Of a DNA stretch of 64,000 bases, positions 6,865 to 61,240 are shown piece after piece. Positions within the stretch are counted from its first letter, which is position 1; the number at the start of each line of letters is the position of its first letter. The notes under the pieces were generated by a model. That model did not search any database and was not told the origin of the DNA. It saw only the letters and a program-made list of their open reading frames with translations. The stretch is from Patescibacteria group bacterium (lineage in GTDB: Bacteria > Patescibacteriota > Minisyncoccia > Phycocordibacterales > UBA5272), in assembly GCA_030916895.1 (NCBI GenBank), contig JAUPVR010000001.1, forward strand, positions 1,887 through 65,886, written 5' to 3'. The translations under genes and the position numbers were made by a program.

Positions 6865-7248
6865 ATGGCAACGCTTTTTACAAAAATCATACAAGGTGAG
6901 ATTCCTTCATACAAAGTGTATGAAGATGATGTGGTGTATGCATTCTTAGATATCAATCCAATGCAGAAGGGGCATACGCTTGTCGTACCAAAGGTAGAAG
7001 TTGACCAGTTGATTGATTTGGACGAGAAATTGTTTGATAGATACATGCATCGTGTGCGCTACGTTGCGCAAATTTTGCGTGCAAAGACTAACTGCAAGCG
7101 TGTTTGTATGGTGGTTGTCGGTTATGAAATGCCACATGCACATGTTCACCTTATCCCAACAAACTCAATGGAGGATTTTGATATGAAAAAAATCCACCCC
7201 GCAACAAAAGAAGAGCTTGAAGAAATGCACAAACTTCTTACGACATAA
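6865..7248 (+). CDS. HIT-family (histidine triad) protein
   Basis: HAHVHLIP histidine-triad motif. Confidence 0.8.
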   Translation: MATLFTKIIQGEIPSYKVYEDDVVYAFLDINPMQKGHTLVVPKVEVDQLIDLDEKLFDRYMHRVRYVAQILRAKTNCKRVCMVVVGYEMPHAHVHLIPTNSMEDFDMKKIHPATKEELEEMHKLLTT

Positions 7249-7502
7249 TGAAAACATTTTCTGATAAAGTATACGCTGTTGTAAAAAATATTAAACGCGG
7301 AAAGACGCTTACGTATAAGCAAGTGGCTAATTTGGTGGGGAGTCCGAAAGCATATCGTGCTGTCGGTAACATTTTGAATAAGAATTATAACCAAAATATT
7401 CCATGTCACAGAGTTACTCGAAGCGATGGAGCACCTGGTGGGTACAATCGGGGAAGAAAATTAAAGGTACAGCGTCTCAAAGAAGAAGGTGCTAGACTAT
7501 AA
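7248..7502 (+). CDS. MGMT-family DNA-binding domain protein (PCHRV motif), 84 aa
   Basis: IPCHRV active-site motif of O6-alkylguanine alkyltransferase C-domain; no N-terminal domain. Confidence 0.65.
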   Translation: MKTFSDKVYAVVKNIKRGKTLTYKQVANLVGSPKAYRAVGNILNKNYNQNIPCHRVTRSDGAPGGYNRGRKLKVQRLKEEGARL

Positions 7503-27111: not shown

Positions 27112-28242
27112 TTAGCGCCGAAGGGGCTTGTGCCGATTTTTGTAACGCTTCCTATATTCGTGCGAGGCGTGCTTGAATTCTTTGCAGAAATTGAGCGTCC
27201 TCTTATCGGTTTCGGTTGGCGTTACGAGCCGTAGGTAGTGAAGGAACTCTGCAATCATCCCGCGTATCACTTCTGGTGAATCGTTCCACGCAGGTGTTGC
27301 AAGGTAGCTTTTCATCACACCTTCGATACGGTCCCGCTTCCACCTAGGGAAACGAAGAACAGCTTTATCACCCGTATTTTCAATTCCCACCTTGGTGACA
27401 AATACCGTACCATGCTTCACATCAAGAACTCGTGACTTCCGGTGATTAACCGAGAAACCAGCGTCATTGATGAGGCTCCGTATTTCTCGCCGAAGATCGC
27501 TCCCGATAATGATGTCGCGGGAAAAAACCAAATCATCAACATAGCGAGTGTAGGTTATTGTTCGTTCGGTGTTTTCCTTAGACCCTTTTCTTTCACACAG
27601 AGCGCGAAGTTTGCTATCAAGAAAGACTTCGCAGTAAAGGTTAAGGAGACGTGGAGACATCGGTCCACCAATGGCGAGTCCGATGTTATTTGGTCCTGAA
27701 AAAGCAATTCGTACAAACTCTCGCAAGGGTAAGTACAGCTTGTCGGTTGTCATCATTTCCTGTGCAAGAGGATTTGAGGCGAACCAGCGAAGGGAATACC
27801 CAGAATCAAGCTGATACTTTCCGTAGTGAAAGATGAGGACGAGAAGCTTTGTCAGGCGGTCAAGGTCGACACTTGGATATGCGTGCACGAAGTCGGTGAT
27901 GTAGAAAAACCGATGACCTTTGTGCTTTTCAGCATTTACGAAGTGGTTAGATGATGGAACCGACCCCGTGGAAGACGGGAGTTTGCGCAGGGTGTAGGTT
28001 TCCCCGGTCCCATACACTTCACCGATTAGGTTGATTGCTTCATGTAGGTGTCGTTCGAAAACCGCATGAACTCTACGCATCGCCTTGTTCGGGGTGCTAA
28101 TGAGTCTTCGCTTGTCACCCACTTTTTTCCACTCTGTGTGGAATAGGGGCAATGTTTGCAAGTTGCTACCCATGAGTACATGCGGGTCGAAATGAAAAAG
28201 CTCCTCTTTTTGCGAAGGAGCCTTTTTTTGCTTTTTTGCCAT
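27112..28242 (-). CDS. reverse transcriptase, retron-type (stand-alone RT domain, about 376 aa)
   Basis: RT motifs read directly: KKVGDKRRLISTPNKAMRRV (motifs 1/2), ITDFVHAYPSVD (3), LAIGGPMSPRLLNLY (4, QG-x-P-x-SP type), YTRYVDDLVFS (5, compare retron YTRYADDLTFS), VFVTKVGI (VTG-like). SD aaggag sits 6 nt before the MAKKQ start; the 61-codon upstream extension in the ORF track is GC-rich leader, not coding. Confidence 0.85.
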   Translation of the reverse strand: MAKKQKKAPSQKEELFHFDPHVLMGSNLQTLPLFHTEWKKVGDKRRLISTPNKAMRRVHAVFERHLHEAINLIGEVYGTGETYTLRKLPSSTGSVPSSNHFVNAEKHKGHRFFYITDFVHAYPSVDLDRLTKLLVLIFHYGKYQLDSGYSLRWFASNPLAQEMMTTDKLYLPLREFVRIAFSGPNNIGLAIGGPMSPRLLNLYCEVFLDSKLRALCERKGSKENTERTITYTRYVDDLVFSRDIIIGSDLRREIRSLINDAGFSVNHRKSRVLDVKHGTVFVTKVGIENTGDKAVLRFPRWKRDRIEGVMKSYLATPAWNDSPEVIRGMIAEFLHYLRLVTPTETDKRTLNFCKEFKHASHEYRKRYKNRHKPLRR

Positions 28243-28306
28243 CGGAAGCTCCTTTGGTTTATGGGGTGATATTACAAATGAACATTTAAGTATTTCCACT
28301 GCTGGC

Positions 28307-28641
28307 GCTGGGGAGCCATGTAGATGCAGGGCAACACCCGAAGGTGCGTAACCAAAGCAGTGAACCGCGGGCCTGCGGCCGATCTCTCCTCCCGACCGAC
28401 TTCCGGCTGTTCGCGTGAATCGCACATGGCATGAACTTGCGATGACGCAGTCTGCTCGGACAGTGCCGAGGCTTCGCGGGCATAGCTTGCGCTATGAGGG
28501 AGGGCAACCCTCCCTTCCTGTCGCCAGACCTTACATCAAGAGAAAATTCCTCAAGAGAAGGCTTACTACGGCAGGATTTTGCTTAGGCACAACTACTTCT
28601 GTAATGCAGGATCTTGCACCCACAAGGTTTCGCTCCCCAGC
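28307..28641 (-). ncRNA. candidate structured ncRNA upstream of the RT (msr/msd-like or DRT-template-like)
   Basis: About 58-60% GC against a ~38% background; bracketed by 10-nt inverted repeats gctggggagc (28307-28316) and gctccccagc (28632-28641); internal hairpins include gggaggg-caa-ccctccc and a UUCG tetraloop stem; ends about 65 nt upstream of the RT start on the same strand. Confidence 0.45.
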
Positions 28642-48330: not shown

Positions 48331-48606
48331 ATGAAATATTTAGATGATAGAGATAAATCAAAAATTATTCGCCGATTAAAGTTACTTGAGGGTCAGGTTC
48401 GCGGTCTTCAGAAGATGGTTGATGCAGATACGTACTGTATTGATATCATCACACAAACTTCTGCGGTTAAGCAGGGACTTTCAAATGTTGAAGACCTTCT
48501 TCTTGCAAATCACCTTGGCCACTGTGTGGTTCACCAGATTTCTTCTGGTCAAATTGAGAAAGCAAAAAAGGAGGTACTCACCGTTTACAAACTTAAAAGA
48601 AAATAA
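48331..48606 (+). CDS. csoR: CsoR/RcnR-family metal-sensing repressor
   Basis: 91 aa with C (YCID), H and C (HLGHC) ligand pattern of copper-sensing CsoR. Confidence 0.75.
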   Translation: MKYLDDRDKSKIIRRLKLLEGQVRGLQKMVDADTYCIDIITQTSAVKQGLSNVEDLLLANHLGHCVVHQISSGQIEKAKKEVLTVYKLKRK

Positions 48607-48636
48607 ATTAACAAAAATTATAGTCACTATACAACC

Positions 48637-49200
48637 ATGAACAACAAATCACTTTACCTTTCATCCGGTCTTTTCATTATTGGTCTCATTTTCGGTATCG
48701 GTGTTGGCTACTATCTTACTCCACAATACCAGACGTCAATGTACGAAAAAAATGCAATGACACTTGGGCGAGCCGATAGGACGTTTGACCTTCGCTATGT
48801 GAATACGATGATTTCTCATCACAGAGGAGCAATACTTCTTGCAGAACAGTTGCAAAAAAATACAGTACGCCCTGAACTTAAAGTACTTGCAGAGGAGATT
48901 TTGAAAAATGAACCTGTTGCTATTGCTGAACTCTATGCGTGGAAAAAAGAGTGGTATGGCGATACGCGTACTGTGCGTGACCCATTTGTTGCAAACTTGG
49001 GTGGAGCAGACGAGAAATTTGATCTTCGTTTTCTAAACGCAATCATTGCCCACCATGAAGCGGGTATTGAGATGACAAAAGAAACACGATTGAAGGCATC
49101 GAGGGTGGAAGTCCTTAATAATGCTGACGCGGTCGAAGCTTTTCTCAATAATGGCCTCAATATCCTTAAGGTTGCACGACAGTCTTGGTATAACATCTAA
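48637..49200 (+). CDS. DUF305-family protein (copper-associated)
   Basis: Duplicated FDLR(Y/F)...HH motifs with N-terminal TM. Confidence 0.6.
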   Translation: MNNKSLYLSSGLFIIGLIFGIGVGYYLTPQYQTSMYEKNAMTLGRADRTFDLRYVNTMISHHRGAILLAEQLQKNTVRPELKVLAEEILKNEPVAIAELYAWKKEWYGDTRTVRDPFVANLGGADEKFDLRFLNAIIAHHEAGIEMTKETRLKASRVEVLNNADAVEAFLNNGLNILKVARQSWYNI

Positions 49201-49227
49201 AATCTCCATTCCCACCAATACAAAACC

Positions 49228-51492
49228 ATGGCAAATAATATTTTTAAGGTACAGGGTATGCATTGTGCAAGTTGCGCTTCTGTCATTACAAAAAAAATTT
49301 CTAAAATTCCAGGAGTGTTTAACGTTTCCGTTAATTACGGTAACGAGAAAGCTCGTATTGATTTTGATCCAAAACAAGCAACCCCTGCACTATTTAATGA
49401 TGTAGTAAAAGAGCTCGGGTACACACTCACCTCTGAGAACATGTCATCAGAAAAAATGGAGGACGCTCACGACCATATGGGAAAAGAGAATTATTTAGAA
49501 GAGCTTGAATCAAAAGTTGCTTTTATCTTTCCTGTTTCGATTGTTATTTTTATTGCGATGATGTGGGATATTGCAGCGCGTACATTTGCATGGATACCAA
49601 ACTTGCCGATTCCGATGGAACTGTTTAATCTCATTTCGATGATTGTGGCAACGCTCGCTGTATTTTGGGTTGGTCAGCCGTACCTTGCGGGGGTTTTGCG
49701 GTTCGTTAAGTACGGAACTGCGAACATGGACACGCTTATCGGCATCGGCACACTTACGGCATATCTTTACAGTACGGTCATTACGCTTTTGCCTCAGGTT
49801 CGTATTCTCATTCAGGCGCCAGAGTACACGTATTTTGATGTCGCGATAGTCGTGATTGGTTTTGTAACGCTCGGTAAATATTTAGAGGTTCGTTCCAAGA
49901 AAAAGACAGGAGACGCAATAGAAAAACTTCTTCATCTTCAAGCGAAGAATGCGCTTGTTGTTCGTGATGGAAAAGAGGTGGAAATTGCAATTACTGAGGT
50001 CGTACACGATGATGTGATTATTGTTAAACCAGGAGCGAGGATTCCGGTTGATGGAATTATTGTAGAAGGAAGTTCGTTTCTTGATGAATCAATGATAACG
50101 GGTGAGCCGATGCCAATTGAGAAGCATGCGGGAGATGCAGTTGTTGCCGGCACATTAAACACAAGCGGAGCTTTTACGTTTAAGGCCACCAAAGTTGGAA
50201 AGGAAACTCTTCTTTCGCAGATTATTGCTATGGTTGATGAGGCACAAGGAAGTAAGGCTCCAATTGAAGCCCTCGCAGATAAAATCTCTTCGGTGTTTGT
50301 TCCGGTGGTGCTTGTGATTGCGGTTCTCTCCCTCGTTGTTTGGCTTACGATAGGCGCATCGTATCTTGGATTTTCACAAGCACTATCTCTCGGTATTCTG
50401 TCGTTTGTTAGTATTCTTGTGATTGCATGTCCTTGTGCGCTTGGACTTGCCACACCAACCGCAATTATTGTTGGTGTGGGTAAGGGGGCACAAGCAGGCA
50501 TTCTTATCAAAGATGCTTCTACTCTTGAGAAACTTCATAAGGTCAATACTGTTATTGTTGATAAAACAGGAACCATCACCAAAGGTAAACCGACACTTGT
50601 CGATATAAAGAACGATTCAGGTCGTTCCGATGATGAATTTATTTCTCTTCTTGCTTCACTTGAAAAATCGTCTGAGCATCCAATTGCACACGCGGTTGTG
50701 CAATATGCTGAAAGAAAAAATATTAGTATGCAAGAAGTGGCTGAATTCTCAATTGTCGAAGGTAAGGGGTTGAGAGGAAAAATCGGAGGTACGGAATATT
50801 TTGTTGGAAATGTAAAGTTTATAAATGAACTCTCTGTATCATTTGATGAATCAAGTATTGAAAAATATACATCGCAAGGAAAGACACCGCTTATTATTGC
50901 AACAAAAGAAAAAGTGCTCGGTTTCGCGACAGTCTCTGATGAGTTGAAGGAAGCATCTAAAGAGGCAATTGCAAATCTCCACAAGCTTGGCATAAAAGTA
51001 ATTATGCTTACAGGGGATGATGAGCGTACGGCGAAATATATTGCATCACTTGTCGGAATTGATGAAGTTGTTGCACATGTTTTACCACAAGACAAACTTG
51101 CAAAGGTAAAAGAACTCCAGGAACGCGGTCACATTGTTGCGATGGCAGGAGATGGTGTCAACGATGCTCCCGCACTCGCTCAGGCTGATGTGGGAATTGC
51201 AATGGGAACAGGAACAGATGTCGCCATCGAGTCTGCTGGTATCACGCTTTTAGGCGGAGATATTTCTAAGATTGCAAAAGCTATTTCTCTTTCGAAAATG
51301 ACAATGCTTGGAATCAAGCAGAATCTTTTCTGGGCATTCTTTTACAACGCGATTGGTATCCCACTTGCAGCGGGTGTATTTTATCCAGTTTTTGGGTGGT
51401 TGCTTAATCCGATATTTGCTGGACTTGCAATGGCTGGTTCAAGTGTTTCGGTGGTTTCTAACTCGCTTCGCATTAAGGCTAAGAAATTATAA
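49228..51492 (+). CDS. copA: copper-translocating P1B-type ATPase
   Basis: N-terminal HMA GMHCASCA, CPC in TM6, DKTGT, GDGVNDAP. Confidence 0.95.
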   Translation: MANNIFKVQGMHCASCASVITKKISKIPGVFNVSVNYGNEKARIDFDPKQATPALFNDVVKELGYTLTSENMSSEKMEDAHDHMGKENYLEELESKVAFIFPVSIVIFIAMMWDIAARTFAWIPNLPIPMELFNLISMIVATLAVFWVGQPYLAGVLRFVKYGTANMDTLIGIGTLTAYLYSTVITLLPQVRILIQAPEYTYFDVAIVVIGFVTLGKYLEVRSKKKTGDAIEKLLHLQAKNALVVRDGKEVEIAITEVVHDDVIIVKPGARIPVDGIIVEGSSFLDESMITGEPMPIEKHAGDAVVAGTLNTSGAFTFKATKVGKETLLSQIIAMVDEAQGSKAPIEALADKISSVFVPVVLVIAVLSLVVWLTIGASYLGFSQALSLGILSFVSILVIACPCALGLATPTAIIVGVGKGAQAGILIKDASTLEKLHKVNTVIVDKTGTITKGKPTLVDIKNDSGRSDDEFISLLASLEKSSEHPIAHAVVQYAERKNISMQEVAEFSIVEGKGLRGKIGGTEYFVGNVKFINELSVSFDESSIEKYTSQGKTPLIIATKEKVLGFATVSDELKEASKEAIANLHKLGIKVIMLTGDDERTAKYIASLVGIDEVVAHVLPQDKLAKVKELQERGHIVAMAGDGVNDAPALAQADVGIAMGTGTDVAIESAGITLLGGDISKIAKAISLSKMTMLGIKQNLFWAFFYNAIGIPLAAGVFYPVFGWLLNPIFAGLAMAGSSVSVVSNSLRIKAKKL

Positions 51493-51509
51493 AATTAAAA
51501 CTATACACC

Positions 51510-52547
51510 ATGTCTTCAGAACAAACAATACATACTTTTCATGTAAGCGGAATGCACTGCAACTCGTGTGTGCTCATGATTGAGGACACGCTTGGCGAAT
51601 TACCGTACATAACAAATGCTTCGTCATCGCTTAATCATAATTCTGTTACGGTTAAGGGAGATTTTGGCACAAAAACAAAAGAAGAAATTGCCCGTGAATT
51701 TACCTCTTTGCTTAAGGAAAATGGATATACGGTTTCTGTGGAAGAAAACGAGGGAACAAAAATTGTGAAGTGGTCTGAGTTTATAATCGCCATCCCTATT
51801 GCGCTATTTTTTCTTGCACTCTTTGTATTACTTCAGAAACTTGGCATTGTGAATATAATTAATGCGGACAAGGTGACGTATGGAACAGCTTTTCTTGTTG
51901 GTATTGTTGCGTCGCTCTCTACGTGCATGGCAGTTGTTGGTGGATTGTTACTTTCCATGTCGGCGACGTTTGCAAAAGAAGGGGACGCAGTAAAACCCCA
52001 AGCAATGTTTCACCTTGGTCGTATTGTTTCTTTCTTTGTCTTGGGTGGAATAATTGGTGTAATTGGTAGTGCATTTACACTAAACATTACCGCAACATTT
52101 GTTTTGAATTTTTTGGTGGGTTTTGTAATGCTTTTCTTAGGAATTAATCTCATGGATGTATTTCCGTGGGGGAAGCGATTTCAGGTGGGTATGCCTAAAT
52201 TTATTGCAAAGCGCGCACATAAAATTTCATCACTTAACCACACACTTACTCCGCTGTTGGTTGGTATTGCAACCTTTTTCCTTCCATGTGGTTTTACTCA
52301 ATCGATGCAACTTTACACGCTTACTACGGGGGGATTTGTAGAAGGTGGGCTTACTATGCTTTTCTTTGCACTTGGAACATTCCCAGTACTCGCACTTCTT
52401 AGTTTCAGTTCACTTAGTATCAGTAAAAGTAAATACGCAGGAGTATTTTTCAAAAGCGTTGGTCTCATTGTGATACTCTTTGCGCTATTCAATATTATAA
52501 ACAGTTTAGTGGCTGTTGGTATTGTGCCACCACTCTTTTCCATTTAA
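51510..52547 (+). CDS. HMA-domain fused to DsbD/CcdA-like thiol-transfer membrane protein
   Basis: GMHCNSC HMA motif plus TM Cys pair (STCMAV, LPCGF). Confidence 0.5.
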   Translation: MSSEQTIHTFHVSGMHCNSCVLMIEDTLGELPYITNASSSLNHNSVTVKGDFGTKTKEEIAREFTSLLKENGYTVSVEENEGTKIVKWSEFIIAIPIALFFLALFVLLQKLGIVNIINADKVTYGTAFLVGIVASLSTCMAVVGGLLLSMSATFAKEGDAVKPQAMFHLGRIVSFFVLGGIIGVIGSAFTLNITATFVLNFLVGFVMLFLGINLMDVFPWGKRFQVGMPKFIAKRAHKISSLNHTLTPLLVGIATFFLPCGFTQSMQLYTLTTGGFVEGGLTMLFFALGTFPVLALLSFSSLSISKSKYAGVFFKSVGLIVILFALFNIINSLVAVGIVPPLFSI

Positions 52548-52556
52548 TCTATATAT

Positions 52557-52979
52557 ATGCAATCACGGACACTCATAGCTCTCATTATCGGTTCTGTCAC
52601 CATAGGGGTTACCTATTTTATGGTAACGTATAAGAACACGATCGAAACTGAGAGTATAAACGACACACCAAAAACAGAGATAATCGATGGAAGCAATGTC
52701 GTCATGGAAGATGGCAAACAAATTATTAATTTGTTTGCAAAAGGAGGATATCAACCAAGAGTAAGTATTGCTAAGGCTGGGGTGCCAACCATACTTCGCG
52801 TTACAACGAGCAACACATTTGATTGCTCTTCAGCGCTTCGTATTCCAAGTTTGAAGATTGCAAAAAATTTACAGTATTCAGGGAGTGTTGACATTGACCT
52901 TGGTTCTCCAGAGGCGGGGGCAATCGATGGGTTGTGTAGTATGGCAATGTATCGTTTTCAACTACAATTTAAGGACTAA
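52557..52979 (+). CDS. membrane-anchored hypothetical protein in the copper cluster
   Basis: N-terminal TM followed by a beta-rich domain with 2 Cys. Confidence 0.4.
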   Translation: MQSRTLIALIIGSVTIGVTYFMVTYKNTIETESINDTPKTEIIDGSNVVMEDGKQIINLFAKGGYQPRVSIAKAGVPTILRVTTSNTFDCSSALRIPSLKIAKNLQYSGSVDIDLGSPEAGAIDGLCSMAMYRFQLQFKD

Positions 52980-53249: not shown

Positions 53250-53591
53250 TTACGGCTTTTGCTGTCGCTCCTGGAGGAGTTCGATGTTTTCAAGTGTAAA
53301 GGACATGGTCTCCACAAAGAGCATCTTGTTGAAAGTACCGGTCGTTCTTAGGATGATGGTACGGTTCTTGAGATGGCTCCAGTCCTTGCGGACGCGCACA
53401 TCTTCAAGCGACGCAATCGTATCCAAATCCATCACGACCTGGCCGTTGTACTCCATGGAAAGCAGTTGACGGATACTCTCCCTGGTTTCTTCACTGGGGA
53501 TATCCGTACCATTTTCCTTGAACATCAAGCGGAGGATAGACGAACCCTTCTCGGCCATGCTTTGCAGAACGGCCACAATGTAGTCTTTCAT
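53250..53591 (-). CDS. hypothetical 113-aa protein in a GC-rich island
   Basis: SD gggag 9 nt upstream, GC3-biased codons, terminator downstream. Confidence 0.5.
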   Translation of the reverse strand: MKDYIVAVLQSMAEKGSSILRLMFKENGTDIPSEETRESIRQLLSMEYNGQVVMDLDTIASLEDVRVRKDWSHLKNRTIILRTTGTFNKMLFVETMSFTLENIELLQERQQKP

Positions 53592-53682
53592 GTGTAATCT
53601 CCCGATTTAGGCACTTGAGCCGTTCTGTTTATTATAAAGTATTTTTTGTATTTTGTCAAGTAAACGGTATACTCTGTACATA

Positions 53683-53850
53683 ATGAAAACATTTAGTAAA
53701 AGAGTAATTGCTTGTGCACTTTCTATTCCGCGCGGATGTGTGAGTACGTACGGCCGGATTGCTCATGCTTCAGGTGGTAGTGATCCAGTAGTATTATTTT
53801 TTTGTTTTGAGATCTTTCACTTTCTCATGAAAGACGGTCGCCATTTTTAG
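53683..53850 (+). pseudogene. truncated ATL/MGMT-like gene fragment
   Basis: MKTFSKRVIACALSIPRGCVSTYGRIAHASGG matches the N-terminus of 59139..59477 (about 80% nt identity over ~100 nt), then diverges and overlaps the marR 3' end. Confidence 0.55.
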
Positions 53851-54249
53851 ATTCCAGTCTGTAATCAATAGTAATTCTGCCACAGTGTATCCAGAGAGGA
53901 TGTCGGGAATTTTTTTTGAAAACATTTCACGTATTGATGTTAGGTTCTTCGGGATTCCCAGAAGTTTTATGATTGTTTTTCTTCGATCATTTTTATCTGC
54001 TTCACGCTTTATGAAACCCCCATTCTCAAGTCTGTCGATCATCGCAGTAACGGCTCCGGTCGTAAGTCCGGTTGCCTTTCCAAGTTCGCCGGCTGTTGCG
54101 GAATGTACCTCACTTAAAAATTCCAGACAGCGGATGTCGGTAGGGTGTATTCCTGTGATTTCGGATACGGCATGCACAAAAAGTGCCCCAGCTCGAGTTT
54201 CTCTGTGTATTGATGATATTAGTTTTTCTGTTGCTCCTTTGCGTTTCAT
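53794..54249 (-). CDS. MarR-family transcriptional regulator
   Basis: Winged-helix core ELGKATGLTTGAVTAMIDRLE. Confidence 0.8.
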   Translation of the reverse strand: MKRKGATEKLISSIHRETRAGALFVHAVSEITGIHPTDIRCLEFLSEVHSATAGELGKATGLTTGAVTAMIDRLENGGFIKREADKNDRRKTIIKLLGIPKNLTSIREMFSKKIPDILSGYTVAELLLITDWNLKMATVFHEKVKDLKTKK

Positions 54250-54365
54250 TTAAGTTACTTTATACTAAAGTAACTTGTTTGTAAAGATATTTTATATTAT
54301 TATGAATAATAGCGGAATTGGGTGTATTGTGTTTTGAATTCTTTTACTCTATTAATTTTTTACAT

Positions 54366-55922
54366 ATGGCAATGAACAAGAAAATTTTATTTATAGTATC
54401 GGGGCTTATCGTTGTTTTTGCCGTTGGTGGTATATTTTTTATGCAACGTTTTAGTGCTACACCATACACACTTGCGGTCACGAAGAGAGGGAAGATTGTC
54501 CAGGAAGTTTCCGCAAGCGGGAAAGTTGAGTCACCCACACAAATCGATTTGCGCTTTAAAGGGAGCGGTAAACTTATTTCTCTAAATGCACGTGTTGGTG
54601 AGAAGGTGTCAGTAGGTAAACTCCTTGCCAAACAAGATACCACTCAACTTGATGCTCAGGTGAAAGAAATGCAGTCAGGAATAGATCTTCAGAGAGCAAA
54701 GTTAAATCAGCTTTTAAGTGGAGCTTCATCTGAGGATGTGACTATTTCAGAAACGGCATTGCTTAATGCTGAACAAGCACTCTTTGGTGCAAAGAAAAAC
54801 ATGATTGATAGGTTGCAAGGAGTATATACAAAATCTGATGATGCAATTCGAGCAAGGGCCGACCAACTATTTGATAACCCAAAAACATCTAACCCACAAC
54901 TAGTGTCTAGTTTTGCATATGATATGCGACTTGAGAACGAAATGGAAGCAGAGAGATTTCGTATTGAGGCTATGCTTAATGAATGGTTTGAAAATGTCGA
55001 TACCATTTTAGTGGAAAGTGATTTTATTCTTGCAACAACGCTCGCAAAAAAGAACGCCGCACAAGTAAAGGCATTTCTTACAAGTGCGGCGTTTGTGGTA
55101 AACACTCTTACACCAAATTCCAATATAAACCAAACAACAATCGACAAGTGGAAGGCTGATATTTCTACAGCACGAACTAATGTTGACACGGCTGTCTCTA
55201 ATCTCCTTGTTGCAGAGGAAAATTTACAAACAAAAGAATCAGCTTTTACGACAGCAAAGAATCAACTTGCTCTCAAGACTGCCCCAGTGCGCTCATCAGA
55301 TGTTGCTGTGTACCAGGCACAAATTGCACAAGCAGAATCCTCTCTTGCAAGAATAGAGGCCCAGAGAAGGGATTTGATAATTTACGCACCGATATCTTCT
55401 TTGGTGACAAGAGTCAGTGGTGAGGTCGGTGAGATGGTCGGAGCAGATATGGTTGTGGTATCACTTGCTACTGGGGGTGCATTACAAATACGACTGAATG
55501 TTGTTGAAGATAAAATTGTTAATGTTCGTATCGGCCAGAAGGCAAGGATTACCTTTGATGCGATTGGAGATGAGGAATTTAGTGGAAAAGTCGTTGCCAT
55601 TGACCCTGTGGAGACCATCATTGGTGGTGCGGTGTATTACCAGACAACGATATTATTTGATACGGTAGACGAACGAATTCGATCAGGAATGACGGCCAAT
55701 GTTTGGATTAATACAGCCGTTTCAGAGGAGGTCCTTTTTGTTCCAGCAAGCGCCGTGCAAAGCAATGACGGAAAAAAAATGGTGCAAACATTTTCTGATG
55801 GACGAGTGGTTAAAAAAGAAGTACACACTGGTATTGAAAATGATGCTGGAATGATTGAAATTATTTCAGGTCTTTCCGAAGGAGAACAAGTTATTCTCGG
55901 TGCTAATAAAAAGCAAAAGTAG
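54366..55922 (+). CDS. efflux membrane-fusion (HlyD/MacA-like) protein
   Basis: N-terminal TM, long coiled-coil hairpin, beta-barrel C-terminus. Confidence 0.7.
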   Translation: MAMNKKILFIVSGLIVVFAVGGIFFMQRFSATPYTLAVTKRGKIVQEVSASGKVESPTQIDLRFKGSGKLISLNARVGEKVSVGKLLAKQDTTQLDAQVKEMQSGIDLQRAKLNQLLSGASSEDVTISETALLNAEQALFGAKKNMIDRLQGVYTKSDDAIRARADQLFDNPKTSNPQLVSSFAYDMRLENEMEAERFRIEAMLNEWFENVDTILVESDFILATTLAKKNAAQVKAFLTSAAFVVNTLTPNSNINQTTIDKWKADISTARTNVDTAVSNLLVAEENLQTKESAFTTAKNQLALKTAPVRSSDVAVYQAQIAQAESSLARIEAQRRDLIIYAPISSLVTRVSGEVGEMVGADMVVVSLATGGALQIRLNVVEDKIVNVRIGQKARITFDAIGDEEFSGKVVAIDPVETIIGGAVYYQTTILFDTVDERIRSGMTANVWINTAVSEEVLFVPASAVQSNDGKKMVQTFSDGRVVKKEVHTGIENDAGMIEIISGLSEGEQVILGANKKQK

Positions 55923-55925
55923 GTC

Positions 55926-57158
55926 ATGAACGGAATTGATTTTAAAACGGCCATCTTTGTTGCTTATAAAACTATCACAAGAGGCAATAAATCTACAGCG
56001 GTTTTCACGGTCTTTATCTTGTCTCTTTCATTTTTTAATTTGATGTTTGTTTCTGGGTTTTTGAATGGGTTTTCTGATGGAATTATGCGATCAATGATAG
56101 ATAATTCAACTGCGCATATTATTGTCATGCCACAAGAGAAGCCGACCGTTAAAGAATTTATCTTGAACCAGGAGAAGGTTCGTGCCCAAATCGAAACAAT
56201 TCCAGGGGTTGTTGGAACAGCTCGGCATTATCAATTGGGGGGTTCATTCGCATATGATAAGGAAAAGATGGGTGAATTTAAGAGAGTTTCTGCGCCAGTG
56301 ATAGGTGTGACCCAGTCAGAAGAAAAGAAGATTCTCACCGTATATCAAAATATTGTTTCTGGTGAGTTTCCTGACGATCTGAAGAATGATGAAATTATAC
56401 TTGGAGCAAATCTTGCTGGCGGATTTGGGACAAAACAAACATCAGATCTCGGCGGTGCGGTTGTGGGAGATGAAGTGCAGGTGACATACTCCAACGGCAT
56501 CATTCGAACATATACGATAAAAGGAATTTTTAAGATTAGTATGGGTGGGTCGGTTGGGGGTACTGCGTTCATTTCGGCGCAGGAGGCGGAATCTGTATTG
56601 TCTGTGTATGATAACGCTTCAGAGATTATGGTACGTGTCGATCTTATTCATGGAACATTGGATGAGTATGTTGAGCAAATTGAGACAATAGTCCCAAACC
56701 TAAAAATTGAAAAATACACGAACCGTCTCAGTACTGTTGGTATCCTTGTTGATGCTTTCAATATCATTGCTGTCATTGTAACTGTTATTAGTATTATTGT
56801 TGCTGCGATAACAATCTTTGTGATGATATATGTGAACGCAGTGAATAAGCGCAGACAAATTGGCATTCTAAAAGCCATAGGTATCAAGGAAAGTATTATT
56901 GAGTTATCATATGTTTTTCAATCTCTTTTCTATGTAATTCTTGGAACCGCACTCGGGCTTGTGATTGTTTTTTCCCTTGTGGTTCCTCTGTTGCAAATAC
57001 GACCAATTCTGATGCCATTTGGAAACGCAAGTTTGGTGTATACCTTTGTCGAGATTTTTATAAACATTATTAGTCTTACCATCTCGGGAATCTTCGCAGG
57101 GTTTATTCCTGCAAAGATGGTAGCAAGACAGAATATTTTAAGATCAATCTGGGGTTAA
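55926..57158 (+). CDS. ABC transporter permease, FtsX/MacB-like
   Basis: TM1, large periplasmic loop and 3 C-terminal TMs. Confidence 0.75.
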   Translation: MNGIDFKTAIFVAYKTITRGNKSTAVFTVFILSLSFFNLMFVSGFLNGFSDGIMRSMIDNSTAHIIVMPQEKPTVKEFILNQEKVRAQIETIPGVVGTARHYQLGGSFAYDKEKMGEFKRVSAPVIGVTQSEEKKILTVYQNIVSGEFPDDLKNDEIILGANLAGGFGTKQTSDLGGAVVGDEVQVTYSNGIIRTYTIKGIFKISMGGSVGGTAFISAQEAESVLSVYDNASEIMVRVDLIHGTLDEYVEQIETIVPNLKIEKYTNRLSTVGILVDAFNIIAVIVTVISIIVAAITIFVMIYVNAVNKRRQIGILKAIGIKESIIELSYVFQSLFYVILGTALGLVIVFSLVVPLLQIRPILMPFGNASLVYTFVEIFINIISLTISGIFAGFIPAKMVARQNILRSIWG

Positions 57159-57170
57159 TAAATTAAAATT

Positions 57171-57833
57171 ATGATCAAAGTAGATAATCTTACAAAAACA
57201 TACCCTGGAGAAGTTCCCACTCAAGCGTTAAAAGGTGTTTCGTTTGAGATAAAGAAAGGTGAATTTGTTGCACTCATGGGTAGAAGTGGATCTGGTAAAT
57301 CAACACTCTTACATCAACTAGGACTTCTTGATATTCCAACATCGGGAACCGTCCTTATTGATGGTGTCGATATTCTTGCTCTTTCTGATGCTGAAAGAAC
57401 TTCATTTCGTCTCAATCACCTGGGGTATGTATTTCAAGAGTATGCACTTATTGCTGAATTTACTGCGCTTGAAAATGTTTATTTTCCAGCGATGGTTCTT
57501 GGTGGAGAGCGCAACAAAGAGCGTGCGTCAGAACTTCTGAAACTTGTTGGATTAGAAGAAAGGTTGCATCATTACCCCGGAGAAATGTCGGGGGGGGAAC
57601 AACAACGCGTCGCGATTGCTCGAGCGCTTATTAATAATCCTAAAATACTCTTTGCAGACGAAGCAACAGCAAACCTCGATACTGTTTCGTCAGAGGTGGT
57701 ATATCGACTTTTTCAGAAATTGAATAAAGAACTTAATCAGACCATTATCATGATTACCCATGAGCCAGAAGATAGAAAGTATATGGATCGAGTGATTTGG
57801 TTGAAAGACGGTTTGATAGAAAAAGAAGACTAA
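57171..57833 (+). CDS. ABC transporter ATP-binding protein (MacB/LolD-like)
   Basis: Walker A GRSGSGKST, signature MSGGEQQR, Walker B ILFADE. Confidence 0.9.
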   Translation: MIKVDNLTKTYPGEVPTQALKGVSFEIKKGEFVALMGRSGSGKSTLLHQLGLLDIPTSGTVLIDGVDILALSDAERTSFRLNHLGYVFQEYALIAEFTALENVYFPAMVLGGERNKERASELLKLVGLEERLHHYPGEMSGGEQQRVAIARALINNPKILFADEATANLDTVSSEVVYRLFQKLNKELNQTIIMITHEPEDRKYMDRVIWLKDGLIEKED

Positions 57834-57872
57834 TCGATTATTGTTTATAACTGTCAGTTTTTTAAATCGTGC

Positions 57873-59138
57873 GTGGTACCATGTACGTGTATGCTCATAT
57901 ATCTTATTCTTGAAATGGTTTCGGTTATTATTGGAATAATCGCAATCATTTTCATTGCGTTTCAATTTTACAAATTACCAAATACGCTCTCATTTTTTAA
58001 GAGAAGAAATATTCTTTTCTTTGTCGCTGCTTTGTTTTTTGCATTTTTTCTTGGTATTTTTGCCGACAAGACATATCCGCCAAATTTCGCGATGCCAGCG
58101 TTCATGCATTCGCACGCACCAGGGGGGCTTCCAGCGTCGATTCCATTTGGAAAAATTTTTGAATTTTTTAGGTATCAAAATAGATTTGAGAAGGTTGCCG
58201 ACATTGGTGCAGATCCGACAAATGTGCCCGAGCTAGCGGCCGCAGACGCAGATGGTATTATCCGTTTTTCATTCGTAACCCAGGAAGTTATCGCTGAAAT
58301 TTCTCCGGGAATTTATTTTAATTATTGGACATTTAACAACCAAGTGCCAGGCCCGATGCTTCGTGTAAAAGAAGGTGATATGGTTGAAATGTCTGTCACG
58401 AACCATCCTTCGAGTTTGCATATGCACAATATTGATTTGCACGCAGTTACTGGTCCAGGAGGGGGTGCGGTGCTTACCAATGTAAATCCAGGTGAGACGA
58501 AAACTTTTCGCTTTAAAGCGCTTAACCCAGGACTCTTCATTTATCACTGTGCGATGCCAAATGTTTCTACACACAATTCGCATGGACAGTATGGACTTAT
58601 CTTGGTTGAACCAAAAGAAGGGCTTTCAAAAGTTGACCGCGAGTTTTATGTCGTTCAAGGGGAACTGTATACGGATGGAGAGCTTGGTAAAAAAGGTCTT
58701 GTCCCATTTGATTCCGAAGCACTATTAGACGGTATACCAAACTATGTAACGTTTAATGGACGCGTTGAAACTGCACCAAGAATGAAAGCTAAGGTCGGTG
58801 AGACAGTAAGAATGTATGTTGGTAACGGTGGAGTTAATCTTATTTCTTCATTCCATGTTATTGGTGAAATTTTTGATACAGTGTATCCGAATGGTTCTAT
58901 TGGAGGAGCTCTTGAACATAATACACAAGCTGCTCAAGTACTTCCGGGTGGTTCAAGTATCATAGAGTTCAAGCTTGATGTTCCAGGTAAGTATCTTCTT
59001 GTTGATCACGCACTTGCGCGTATGAACAAAGGTGCGTGGGCAGTACTTGAAGTAACCGGAGAAGATAACCCGGAGATATTTACACCAATAAAAAATGGTT
59101 CGTCTGTGGAAAAGGAGAAGCGCGAAATATATCACTAG
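57873..59138 (+). CDS. nirK: copper-containing nitrite reductase-like two-cupredoxin protein with N-terminal TM anchor
   Basis: HMHNIDLHAVTGPGGG and FIYHCAMP...HNSHGQYG copper-ligand motifs closely resemble NirK; start uncertain (57873, 57891 or 57915). Confidence 0.65.
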   Translation: MVPCTCMLIYLILEMVSVIIGIIAIIFIAFQFYKLPNTLSFFKRRNILFFVAALFFAFFLGIFADKTYPPNFAMPAFMHSHAPGGLPASIPFGKIFEFFRYQNRFEKVADIGADPTNVPELAAADADGIIRFSFVTQEVIAEISPGIYFNYWTFNNQVPGPMLRVKEGDMVEMSVTNHPSSLHMHNIDLHAVTGPGGGAVLTNVNPGETKTFRFKALNPGLFIYHCAMPNVSTHNSHGQYGLILVEPKEGLSKVDREFYVVQGELYTDGELGKKGLVPFDSEALLDGIPNYVTFNGRVETAPRMKAKVGETVRMYVGNGGVNLISSFHVIGEIFDTVYPNGSIGGALEHNTQAAQVLPGGSSIIEFKLDVPGKYLLVDHALARMNKGAWAVLEVTGEDNPEIFTPIKNGSSVEKEKREIYH

Positions 59139-59477
59139 TTGTGTTTTGTTGTAAATAAAATGAACACATTTAGTAAAAGGGTGGTTGCTTGTGCACTTGC
59201 AATTCCGTATGGTCGTGTGAGCACCTACGGGAGAATTGCTCGTGCTTCAGGTGGGGGCGTTATGGCATCCCAAAGTGTGACTTCAATTCTTGCGAAAGCG
59301 TATAACGAAGGAGAGAAAAACATTCCATTTCATCGCATTGTCTATGCTAATGGTACGGTATGGCTAAACGAAAAGTATAAAAAAGAGCGCATGAAGCGCT
59401 ATAAAGAAGAAGGAATTGAGGTGGATAAAAACGGAACAATAAAAAATTTTGAAAAAATTTTATTTGAGTTTAGGTAA
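59139..59477 (+). CDS. alkyltransferase-like (ATL) protein, MGMT DNA-binding domain without the catalytic Cys
   Basis: IPFHRIV in place of PCHRV. Confidence 0.6.
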   Translation: MCFVVNKMNTFSKRVVACALAIPYGRVSTYGRIARASGGGVMASQSVTSILAKAYNEGEKNIPFHRIVYANGTVWLNEKYKKERMKRYKEEGIEVDKNGTIKNFEKILFEFR

Positions 59478-59509
59478 AACAACATATTTGTATATATACT
59501 AAGACTCAT

Positions 59510-59788
59510 ATGGCCCTTATTGCACACCATCATTTTATTGATAAACTTGCCTTTCTAAATGGCTTCATCTCGGGTGTTGCTCTCTATCCGCAGGTATGGA
59601 AGTTGTTTACTTTTGGTTCAACAGAAGGGGTTTCTTTTGTTTCTTTTCTTATTATATTCATAAACAGCATTGTATGGCTCATCTATGCAGTACATCGTGA
59701 ATTAATTTCTTTAGCGGTTGCATCTATTTTAAACATAGTGGCAAGTGGAATTTTAACTGTTGCAATTATGCTTGCGACGAATAACTAA
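59510..59788 (+). CDS. SemiSWEET (PQ-loop) sugar transporter
   Basis: 92 aa, 3 TM, LYPQVWKL PQ motif. Confidence 0.6.
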   Translation: MALIAHHHFIDKLAFLNGFISGVALYPQVWKLFTFGSTEGVSFVSFLIIFINSIVWLIYAVHRELISLAVASILNIVASGILTVAIMLATNN

Positions 59789-60449: not shown

Positions 60450-60878
60450 TTATGCGGTGATTACCCGCATGTGTTTGCGGGCTTCGGCTTTCGCGAGGAC
60501 CGCGCACGCATGTGGGTCGTTCTCGGCGTTCTCGAACGTGTGAAGTGACCACATGTGCACGCCGGGCCCTTCGTGTCTTGCGCGGTAGCACCGGCCAGAT
60601 ATGGTTCGCACAATGAAGTGCTTACCATCCGGGTGCTTGGGGTCGCTTGGGGTCACGAAGCGCACATGGGCAGTCGGAAGATCTCCTTCGCGAAAGTCCT
60701 CGATGGGACGCATCAGGTGGACCCGGAACGCGTCCGCACCGCTTTCGAAGAGGTGCTTTATCATGAGCACATCAACGACAGGCGGAGTGACTGGGTCGAC
60801 TTTGACCTGGTCTTCGATTTTTTCTCCGAACAATTCCATTTTGGTTTTTCTCCCGGGGTTGTTTATGGTTATGGCCAA
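60450..60878 (-). CDS. hypothetical 142-aa protein, GC-rich island, distal gene of a 2-gene operon
   Basis: Overlaps the upstream gene by 10 nt; GC3-biased codons. Confidence 0.5.
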   Translation of the reverse strand: MAITINNPGRKTKMELFGEKIEDQVKVDPVTPPVVDVLMIKHLFESGADAFRVHLMRPIEDFREGDLPTAHVRFVTPSDPKHPDGKHFIVRTISGRCYRARHEGPGVHMWSLHTFENAENDPHACAVLAKAEARKHMRVITA

Positions 60879-61240
60879 GAGGGGATGTCATCCCCGCCAA
60901 GCTCAAGTGTCTTTTTCAGAGCTTCTCGTAGTTCTGGCGATAGTGCTTGTGCCTCTTTCGGTTCTTGCATGAGGGCACAAACCGTCATCTTGCATCGATG
61001 AAAATCTTGATGTATCGATGGCAGATTAAAGTTTTTAGCACTTAGCGCAAGAAATGGAGATGCTTCCAGTGTCTTTTCGGGCAAGGAGGATAAAGCAATC
61101 ATGACAAAAAGTGCAGGATCGCCAAACTCTCTTTCCCGTAAAAACCGAAAACCTTGTTCTTTCGAAACGAAGTGATATCCCCGAGGAGATGCGTGCACGT
61201 ATCCGTGCTTTCCGCAGGGACAAATGTACGAGTCCGACAT
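60869..61240 (-). CDS. hypothetical 123-aa protein with N-terminal C-x-C...H motif, GC-rich island
   Basis: SD gaggt 9 nt upstream; host-like -10 tataat upstream. Confidence 0.5.
   Translation of the reverse strand: MSDSYICPCGKHGYVHASPRGYHFVSKEQGFRFLREREFGDPALFVMIALSSLPEKTLEASPFLALSAKNFNLPSIHQDFHRCKMTVCALMQEPKEAQALSPELREALKKTLELGGDDIPSWP

Follow-up and report, generated by a model that had tools for sequence, protein, structure and literature searches.

Two questions are raised by the region 53794–59138 of the window analysed here, that is, the whole stretch of 64,000 nucleotides from contig JAUPVR010000001.1 of a Patescibacteria group bacterium: is the gene closing this region, nirK, truly one for a copper-containing nitrite reductase (NirK), and does it belong with the MarR-controlled, MacAB-like efflux genes that stand immediately upstream of it? 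Our analysis assigns the gene, on its sequence and predicted fold, as a genuine copper nitrite reductase, and places its product in a large clade carrying glutamine as the axial residue of the type-1 copper site, an uncharacterised variant of a known enzyme family. Overall, we read the region as an efflux unit (MarR, its operator and a three-gene exporter) followed by a stand-alone nirK, an account to which we give a probability of about 80%.

Identity of NirK and its type-1 copper site

The gene and its functional positions are located as follows.

57891–59138, + strand: nirK, copper-containing nitrite reductase of 415 aa, AniA-like (SSFHV-type), Gln-axial clade
58425–58442, + strand: H179 (type-1 ligand), D182 (catalytic Asp) and H184 (type-2 ligand), by alignment to AniA
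58545–58589, + strand: type-1 ligand loop with H219 (type-2), C220 (type-1), H228 (type-1) and Q233 (axial), by alignment to AniA
58854–59009, + strand: H322 (catalytic His, SSFHV motif) and H373 (third type-2 ligand), kept in 120/120 homologues

The open reading frame (ORF) spans nt 57873–59138, and its start was set at the ATG at 57891 on the basis of the public protein P0001 and of the alignment with homologues. The encoded protein is 100% identical to the NCBI entry QG653_73 (Patescibacteria group bacterium). A NirK-type enzyme had been proposed in the initial annotation of this DNA, and the proposal was borne out by both sequence and structure matches: in an NCBIfam scan the protein scored 322.8 bits on TIGR02376, above the equivalog cutoff of 296.3, and its top PDB sequence matches were AniA of Neisseria gonorrhoeae (1kbv, E 6.4e-98), with which the core shares about 50% identity over approximately 300 residues, and Pseudoalteromonas 2zoo. 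All 60 PDB sequence matches listed are NirK-family entries, one of them, 4kns, being deposited as 'Multicopper oxidase type 1'. The AlphaFold2 (AF2) monomer model, with a mean predicted local distance difference test (pLDDT) score of 86.6, shows a two-cupredoxin-domain fold, and a Foldseek search with this model returned only NirK structures among the top 50 and reached a TM-score of 0.96 against the core of 6the.

Functional positions were read from an alignment of NirK, AniA and the 120 closest database relatives. Eight of the nine positions checked are invariant in 120/120 homologues, namely the type-1 ligands H179, C220 and H228, the type-2 ligands H184, H219 and H373 and the catalytic pair D182/H322. 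In the crystal numbering of AniA, we take His94, Asp97, His99, His134, His240 and His289 to be the counterparts of H179, D182, H184, H219, H322 and H373, respectively; in known NirK trimers the third type-2 His, here H373, comes from the neighbouring subunit. The two motifs that had first suggested the enzyme (HMHNIDLHA and YHCAMP...H) are both present, as SSLHMHNIDLHA (H179, D182, H184) and IYHCAMPNVSTHNSHGQYG (H219, C220, H228, Q233). A comparison with laccases and other multicopper oxidases had also been recommended: the trinuclear HCH motif of multicopper oxidases was not found in NirK, where the sequence reads Y-H-C-A, thus ruling out laccase-type chemistry, and the laccase, CueO and CopA-MCO models score the protein at 28–55 bits versus cutoffs of 479–559. 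Together with the NirK-only structure matches, these results rule out a multicopper oxidase identity (laccase, CueO, SLAC), and all the type-2 ligands of a nitrite reductase are in place.

The ninth position departs from the canonical type-1 site implied by the initial annotation. Opposite the axial Met148 of AniA, the alignment places Q233 (codon CAG, nt 58587–58589), and Gln occupies this position in all of the 120 close homologues; a sequencing error was rejected, as CAG is two changes away from ATG and the residue is shared throughout. An exhaustive HMMER search, run over 1.84 billion cluster representatives, retrieved 150 NirK family representatives (50%-identity clusters); at the axial position, 135 of these have Met, 5 Gln, 3 Leu and 2 Ala, and four of the five Gln-axial representatives are the nearest relatives of the query NirK. 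The Gln clade can be told from the Met-type sequences by just four columns of the core: three belong to the type-1 ligand loop (G141S, I144N and M148Q, in AniA 1kbv chain-index numbering, as is the following) and the fourth is F123W.

A neighbour-joining tree lacking support values gathers the Gln sequences in a single clade within a larger group of NirKs anchored by two helices, whose other members carry Met or Leu and come from Patescibacteria, Anaerolineales and one Woesearchaeota metagenome-assembled genome (MAG); the isolated Gln cases L037 and P0143 are placed separately. The sister of the two-helix group is a fusion of a transmembrane segment, a cytochrome-b5-like domain and NirK. This architecture is found in P0122 and L087:7796-8686 (an 'uncultured Candidatus Saccharibacteria' MAG), the nearest Met-type relative at 60% identity, where an N-terminal transmembrane segment and a cytochrome-b5-like haem domain (HPG motif) precede NirK; such a built-in donor is unlike the fusions known so far, which carry a cytochrome c at the C-terminus or a cupredoxin at the N-terminus. 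An axial Leu, for which a higher potential is expected, occurs in the related NirKs L040 (the Woesearchaeota MAG), L043, P0126 and P0202. The axial ligand is therefore naturally variable (Met, Gln, Leu, Ala) in this part of the NirK tree.

To our knowledge, every NirK biochemically characterised so far has Met at this position. Cupredoxins can bind copper without the axial ligand, whose effect is one of tuning the site, so that the axial Gln marks a variant and not an exclusion from NirK. Gln Oε would bind copper more strongly than Met Sδ and lower the type-1 potential by something like 100 mV, as in stellacyanin, azurin M121Q and the M150Q mutant of the Achromobacter cycloclastes nitrite reductase (AcNiR). 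Stellacyanin and AcNiR M150Q carry the same Gln at the same structural position, and M148L of the Ralstonia pickettii nitrite reductase (PDB 8qgf) is an engineered mutant of the same axial residue; these proteins, the only experimental guide to what the substitution does, show altered geometry and spectra and, with Gln, a lower potential. Those cases are laboratory mutants or single-domain carriers, whereas here Gln is fixed in a whole natural clade together with compensating changes in the loop. Neither a natural Gln-axial NirK nor a NirK with a transmembrane hairpin came up in the open-access literature searched, the only Gln-axial NirK encountered being the engineered M150Q of AcNiR, mentioned in a paper on AniA.

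The presence of NirK in such hosts is in itself known, published and common. Genes for NirK have already been reported in Patescibacteria, also termed Candidate Phyla Radiation (CPR) (PMC5581439, PMC7906910, PMC12239599), and Danczak et al. 2017 (Microbiome 5:112, PMC5581439) described a distinct CPR nirK clade with conserved copper sites, leaving its electron donor and role open. The gene studied here almost certainly belongs to that same CPR/Parcubacteria clade, in the same host group. The rarity attributed to this enzyme in the initial annotation does not hold, given these reports and the more than 120 distinct homologues which share its architecture at 69–85% identity. What is new beside published NirKs is the axial Gln shared by the whole clade along with its changes in the loop, the anchor made of two helices and the Met/His segment described below; no mention of these three elements was found in Danczak et al. 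2017 (PMC5581439).

Membrane anchor and Met/His segment

Two further elements distinguish the N-terminal extension of the protein.

57894–58067, + strand: two-helix transmembrane hairpin of NirK, residues ~2–28 and 39–59, with a K/R-rich cytoplasmic loop, from the AF2 model
58071–58151, + strand: juxtamembrane segment of NirK, TYPPNFAMPAFMHSHAPGGLPASIPF (M68, M72, H73, H75), clade-specific, a candidate Cu(I)-handling or partner-docking motif

An N-terminal transmembrane anchor had been noticed beforehand, and the protein is indeed predicted to be membrane-anchored, by two helices and not by one: the N-terminal 60 residues fold into two hydrophobic helices (2–28 and 39–59, pLDDT 71–90 in the AF2 model). 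Across 118 homologues, the mean number of Lys and Arg residues is 4.66 in the inter-helix loop, 0.41 in the N-terminal tail and 1.02 in the 15 residues following helix 2. By the positive-inside rule, we infer an N-out/C-out hairpin, with the catalytic domain of NirK facing outward. Outside the cytoplasm is also where a copper enzyme would be expected in a cell that has no periplasm enclosed by an outer membrane.

In AniA, the two-cupredoxin core, the SSFHV-type motif, the type-2 ligands, the catalytic Asp/His pair and the type-1 His-Cys-His set (1kbv, 5tb7, 5ue6) are all shared with our protein. AniA is anchored by lipid to the outer membrane of Neisseria gonorrhoeae, so that both enzymes are membrane-tethered (PMC10452240). 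The anchors differ, AniA using palmitate on a lipoprotein signal and the NirK studied here a two-helix hairpin, as does the axial position (Met148 in AniA versus Q233, accompanied by G141S and I144N); in addition, AniA is without the FAMPxFMHSHAPGG segment of this NirK clade.

This clade-specific Met/His motif, FAMPAFMHSHAPGG, follows helix 2 and forms part of the most conserved stretch of the N-terminal extension, TYPPxFAMPAFMHSHAPGGxPxSIPF. Residues T61, P64, F66, A67, P69, F71, A76, P77, G78 and P85 are invariant in 39 clade members, while positions 73 and 75 swap His and Met between members (e.g., MHSH, MMSH, MHTM); the segment was not found in the Met/Leu two-helix relatives. The His/Met interchange is compatible with Cu(I) ligation, metal binding by this segment being a conjecture.

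The efflux genes and their relation to nirK

The elements upstream of nirK in the region are the following; together with nirK, the four genes make up the five that had been listed initially, all of which were found in place in the ORF list of the 51–62 kb interval.

53794–54249, − strand: MarR-family winged-helix regulator of 151 aa (Pfam MarR_2 E 8.9e-13, MarR E 1.2e-12), divergent from the exporter genes
54252–54276, no strand: 11-nt inverted repeat AAGTTACTTTA-N3-TAAAGTAACTT, 100% complementary with a 3-nt spacer, candidate MarR operator
54366–55922 (ORF possibly from 54318), + strand: membrane-fusion (adaptor) protein, MacA/YknX-like, with an N-terminal transmembrane anchor (TIGR01730 RND_mfp)
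55926–57158, + strand: FtsX-domain permease of the MacB/LolCE/LolF (type VII ABC) kind (Pfam FtsX E 1e-10)
57171–57833, + strand: ABC ATPase, LolD/MacB nucleotide-binding-domain-like (ABC_tran E 2.7e-35)

The proposal of a MarR regulator with a MacAB-like exporter is supported by family matches for both. The adaptor, whose start is likely the ATG at 54366 rather than 54318, scored 136.5 bits on RND_mfp (cutoff 94.9) and 106.8 bits (E 1e-30) on the MacA equivalog model, below the cutoff of 342; its best PDB match was MacA (E 1.2e-23), and precomputed Pfam matches covered the YknX barrel and C-terminal domains. The permease matched LolF (E 8e-12), YtrF (E 2.6e-10) and MacB (E 1.4e-7) in the PDB, and the ATPase scored 241.9 bits on the LolD model, below its equivalog cutoff, and matched the N-terminal half of MacB, which holds the nucleotide-binding domain, at E 2.6e-56. 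As no equivalog cutoff was reached, permease and ATPase are assigned from these matches at the family level only. The inverted repeat lies directly upstream of marR, between the divergent genes, and makes a typical candidate for a MarR operator.

The likeness to MacAB-TolC of E. coli and to the type VII ABC systems YknXYZ, YtrF and LolF consists in the contiguous MacA-like adaptor, FtsX permease and LolD/MacB-like ATPase. On the contrary, ATPase and permease are separate polypeptides here and fused in E. coli MacB, and the adaptor counts about 520 aa versus 371 aa for MacA. Single-membrane bacteria carry out type VII ABC efflux with adaptor, permease and ATPase arranged in this way. The exporter operon contains no TolC-like gene, the rest of the window and the genome not having been searched for one; a TolC-type channel is not expected in a single-membrane organism. 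The MacAB-like operon is ordinary.

A possible co-transcription of nirK with these ABC efflux genes had been put forward at the outset, and a functional link between them was considered as well. In its strongest form such a link would place nirK at the end of a five-gene operon under MarR control, working with an exporter of a toxic product or cofactor tied to nitrite or nitric oxide (NO) chemistry. Indeed, nirK lies on the same strand, 57 nt downstream of the ATPase gene, and the arrangement is identical in four contigs (L001–L004) obtained from different samples. These contigs are, however, of the same organism and do not count as independent evidence, and they are the only ones in which the adjacency of pump and nirK was found. 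The synteny comparison comprised 4 gene-called contexts and 80 genome loci: neither an adaptor nor an FtsX permease was found upstream of nirK by tblastn in 21 other Gln-clade loci or in about 12 related two-helix loci, and the adjacency was likewise not found in the four other genomes inspected with gene calls. Unrelated ABC ATPases (30–39% identity) occur within 10 kb of nirK in a few other loci. A conserved operon of nirK with the ABC pump was thus rejected, as the adjacency is absent elsewhere, and we consider the five-gene operon quite improbable; in all likelihood, the adjacency is incidental and the two are independent units.

Several points weigh against the account of an efflux unit beside a stand-alone nirK. 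A terminator-like site was sought without result in the 57 nt that separate nirK from the ATPase gene, and upstream of nirK only a weak promoter-like match (9/12, at 57813–57841) was detected, in scans of nt 53500–59600 that performed no better than on shuffled sequence; both observations agree with the five-gene operon, and read-through from the pump operon into nirK may occur in this organism. As to the enzyme, trimer formation, copper loading and nitrite reductase activity are inferred by homology, and engineered M150Q of the Achromobacter cycloclastes enzyme is reportedly much less active than the wild type, so that Gln could mean a changed or weakened NirK function. Finally, the Met/His segment has a pLDDT below 50 in the AF2 monomer and is predicted to be disordered.

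When the ORFs flanking nirK by up to 10 kb on either side were clustered, for the window and the 21 Gln-clade loci, no neighbour proved to be universally conserved. The commonest ones were ribonucleotide reductases (7 loci), a CopA cluster (4), a PNPOx-like FMN protein (4), an FAD-linked oxidase (4) and ArsR-type regulators (3 + 3), and none of the frequent families was convincing as an electron donor. A ribonucleotide reductase lies within 10 kb of nirK in 7/21 Gln-clade loci, being of class II (NrdJ) in L005, L008, L010, L012 and L019 and of class I in L007 and L016; in L005 and L008, NrdJ is accompanied by an adenosyltransferase and an ECF-like transporter. This proximity could be a matter of synteny passed on by descent, or of NO chemistry being linked to that of ribonucleotide reductase.

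The window as a whole resembles a small Patescibacteria genome, having a GC content of about 40%, pentose-phosphate and glycolytic genes and many small membrane proteins. Directly downstream of nirK, nt 59139–59477 (+) encode a protein of 112 aa (or 105 aa) that consists of the DNA-binding domain of O6-methylguanine methyltransferase only (PF01035, E 3.5e-12) and shows no PCHR active-site motif in its first 60 residues; a second, similar small protein at 7248–7502 reads PCHR. Two overlapping ORFs at 60450–61240 (−), coding for 142 and 123 aa, gave no Pfam match and lie where the 3' end of the window is richest in GC (0.456). A 437-aa ORF at 27112–28425 (−), in a stretch of raised GC content (0.45 versus ~0.40), matches Pfam RVT_1 (E 5e-10) and so contains a reverse-transcriptase domain; in NCBIfam it comes closest to the retron St85-family reverse transcriptase (E 1.7e-18, far below the cutoff); neither direct repeats of at least 40 nt nor any Rfam match were found nearby.

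Possible copper supply, electron donor and function

A further group of genes in the window bears on how NirK may work.

48331–52979, + strand: copper-homeostasis cluster of 5 genes, 5 kb upstream of nirK, from Pfam and NCBIfam matches

The cluster comprises a CsoR-type repressor, a DUF305 protein, a CopA P1B-ATPase, an HMA-DsbD_2 membrane protein and a 140-aa cupredoxin-fold protein. Homologous copper clusters lie within 10 kb of nirK in two further Gln-clade loci (L005, L021) and in three Chloroflexota-labelled MAGs (L031, L068, L080), and this recurrence suggests a link to nirK through copper delivery. The CsoR-CopA cluster would probably be a copper supply and not an electron donor.

The cupredoxin-fold protein (52557–52979, + strand) is membrane-anchored and has homologues at L005:3557-3958 and L021:2385-2666. 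Its conserved motifs are FDCSS and G(L/V)CSMGM, and it contains no His; with only Cys/Cys/Met/Met as candidate ligands, it is unlikely to be a blue-copper carrier and more probably binds Cu(I). As a donor for NirK it was rejected for want of His. In the other called genes of the window, neither a CxxCH haem-c motif nor a Cys-His-Met blue-copper loop was found. A cupredoxin had been proposed as donor of CPR NirK by Danczak et al. 2017 (PMC5581439), whereas the only cupredoxin-fold protein in the window is this one without His; such proteins may have been counted among the 'cupredoxin donors' in metabolic reconstructions of CPR. AniA receives its electrons from a cytochrome-based respiratory chain, of which the window holds no evidence. 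The remark in the initial annotation that donor and role of NirK are unknown in Parcubacteria agrees both with the literature (PMC5581439, PMC7906910, PMC12239599) and with our finding no donor gene linked to nirK in the window.

In the mechanism we propose, NirK would be an extracytoplasmic enzyme, presumably a trimer, with electrons entering at the type-1 site and passing through the Cys220–His219 bridge to the type-2 site, where nitrite held between Asp182 and His322 would be reduced to NO. By lowering the type-1 potential by about 100 mV, Gln233 would adapt the enzyme to a donor of low potential where a bc1/cytochrome c chain is lacking; the lower potential would cut the driving force needed on the donor side and raise that towards the type-2 site. 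The Met/His segment, at the membrane surface, might handle Cu(I) or dock a partner, and copper would be supplied by the nearby CsoR-controlled CopA exporter. NirK might serve as an electron sink, in nitrite detoxification or in NO production.

A different role in vivo might also be envisaged, with the NirK fold kept and put to O2/superoxide-type, NO or hydroxylamine chemistry, or to copper sequestration or resistance together with CopA. The axial Gln with its two co-varying changes in the type-1 loop, the recurrent linkage to copper-export clusters and the O2 side activities shown by known NirKs would all suit such a role, as would the lack of a linked donor and of other denitrification genes in these genomes (see also PMC5581439, PMC12239599). 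On the other side, Asp182 and His322, which bind the substrate and deliver protons and are specific to nitrite reduction, and all the type-2 ligands are invariant in more than 120 sequences, which speaks for selection on the canonical nitrite reaction, and with HCH absent laccase-type chemistry is out of reach; we therefore regard a different role as distinctly unlikely and retain nitrite reduction as the putative function. More speculative, and in our view an unlikely one, is the idea that the Gln site, the hairpin and the Met/His segment make up a new membrane-coupled electron-entry module, through which a fermentative, cytochrome-free episymbiont would pass electrons to extracellular nitrite from a low-potential donor in the membrane or on the cell surface, possibly the host's, with NirK as sole terminal reductase and redox valve.

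Few redox enzymes turn up in Patescibacteria (CPR) as repeatedly as NirK, whose donor and purpose there are a recognised question of the field. The CPR NirK differs from the textbook enzyme in being predicted to be anchored by a hairpin and in its systematically re-tuned electron-entry copper site, where Gln has taken the place of Met and two loop residues have changed along with it. This predicts a lower type-1 potential, stellacyanin-like spectra, a donor other than pseudoazurin or cytochrome c and, possibly, a Cu(I)-binding surface segment. For annotation, the adjoining efflux pump would be irrelevant to NirK, and a 'cupredoxin' adjoining CopA should not be assumed to be its donor; for bioinorganic chemistry, the Gln-axial clade would be a natural counterpart to the axial-ligand mutants long studied as engineered proteins.

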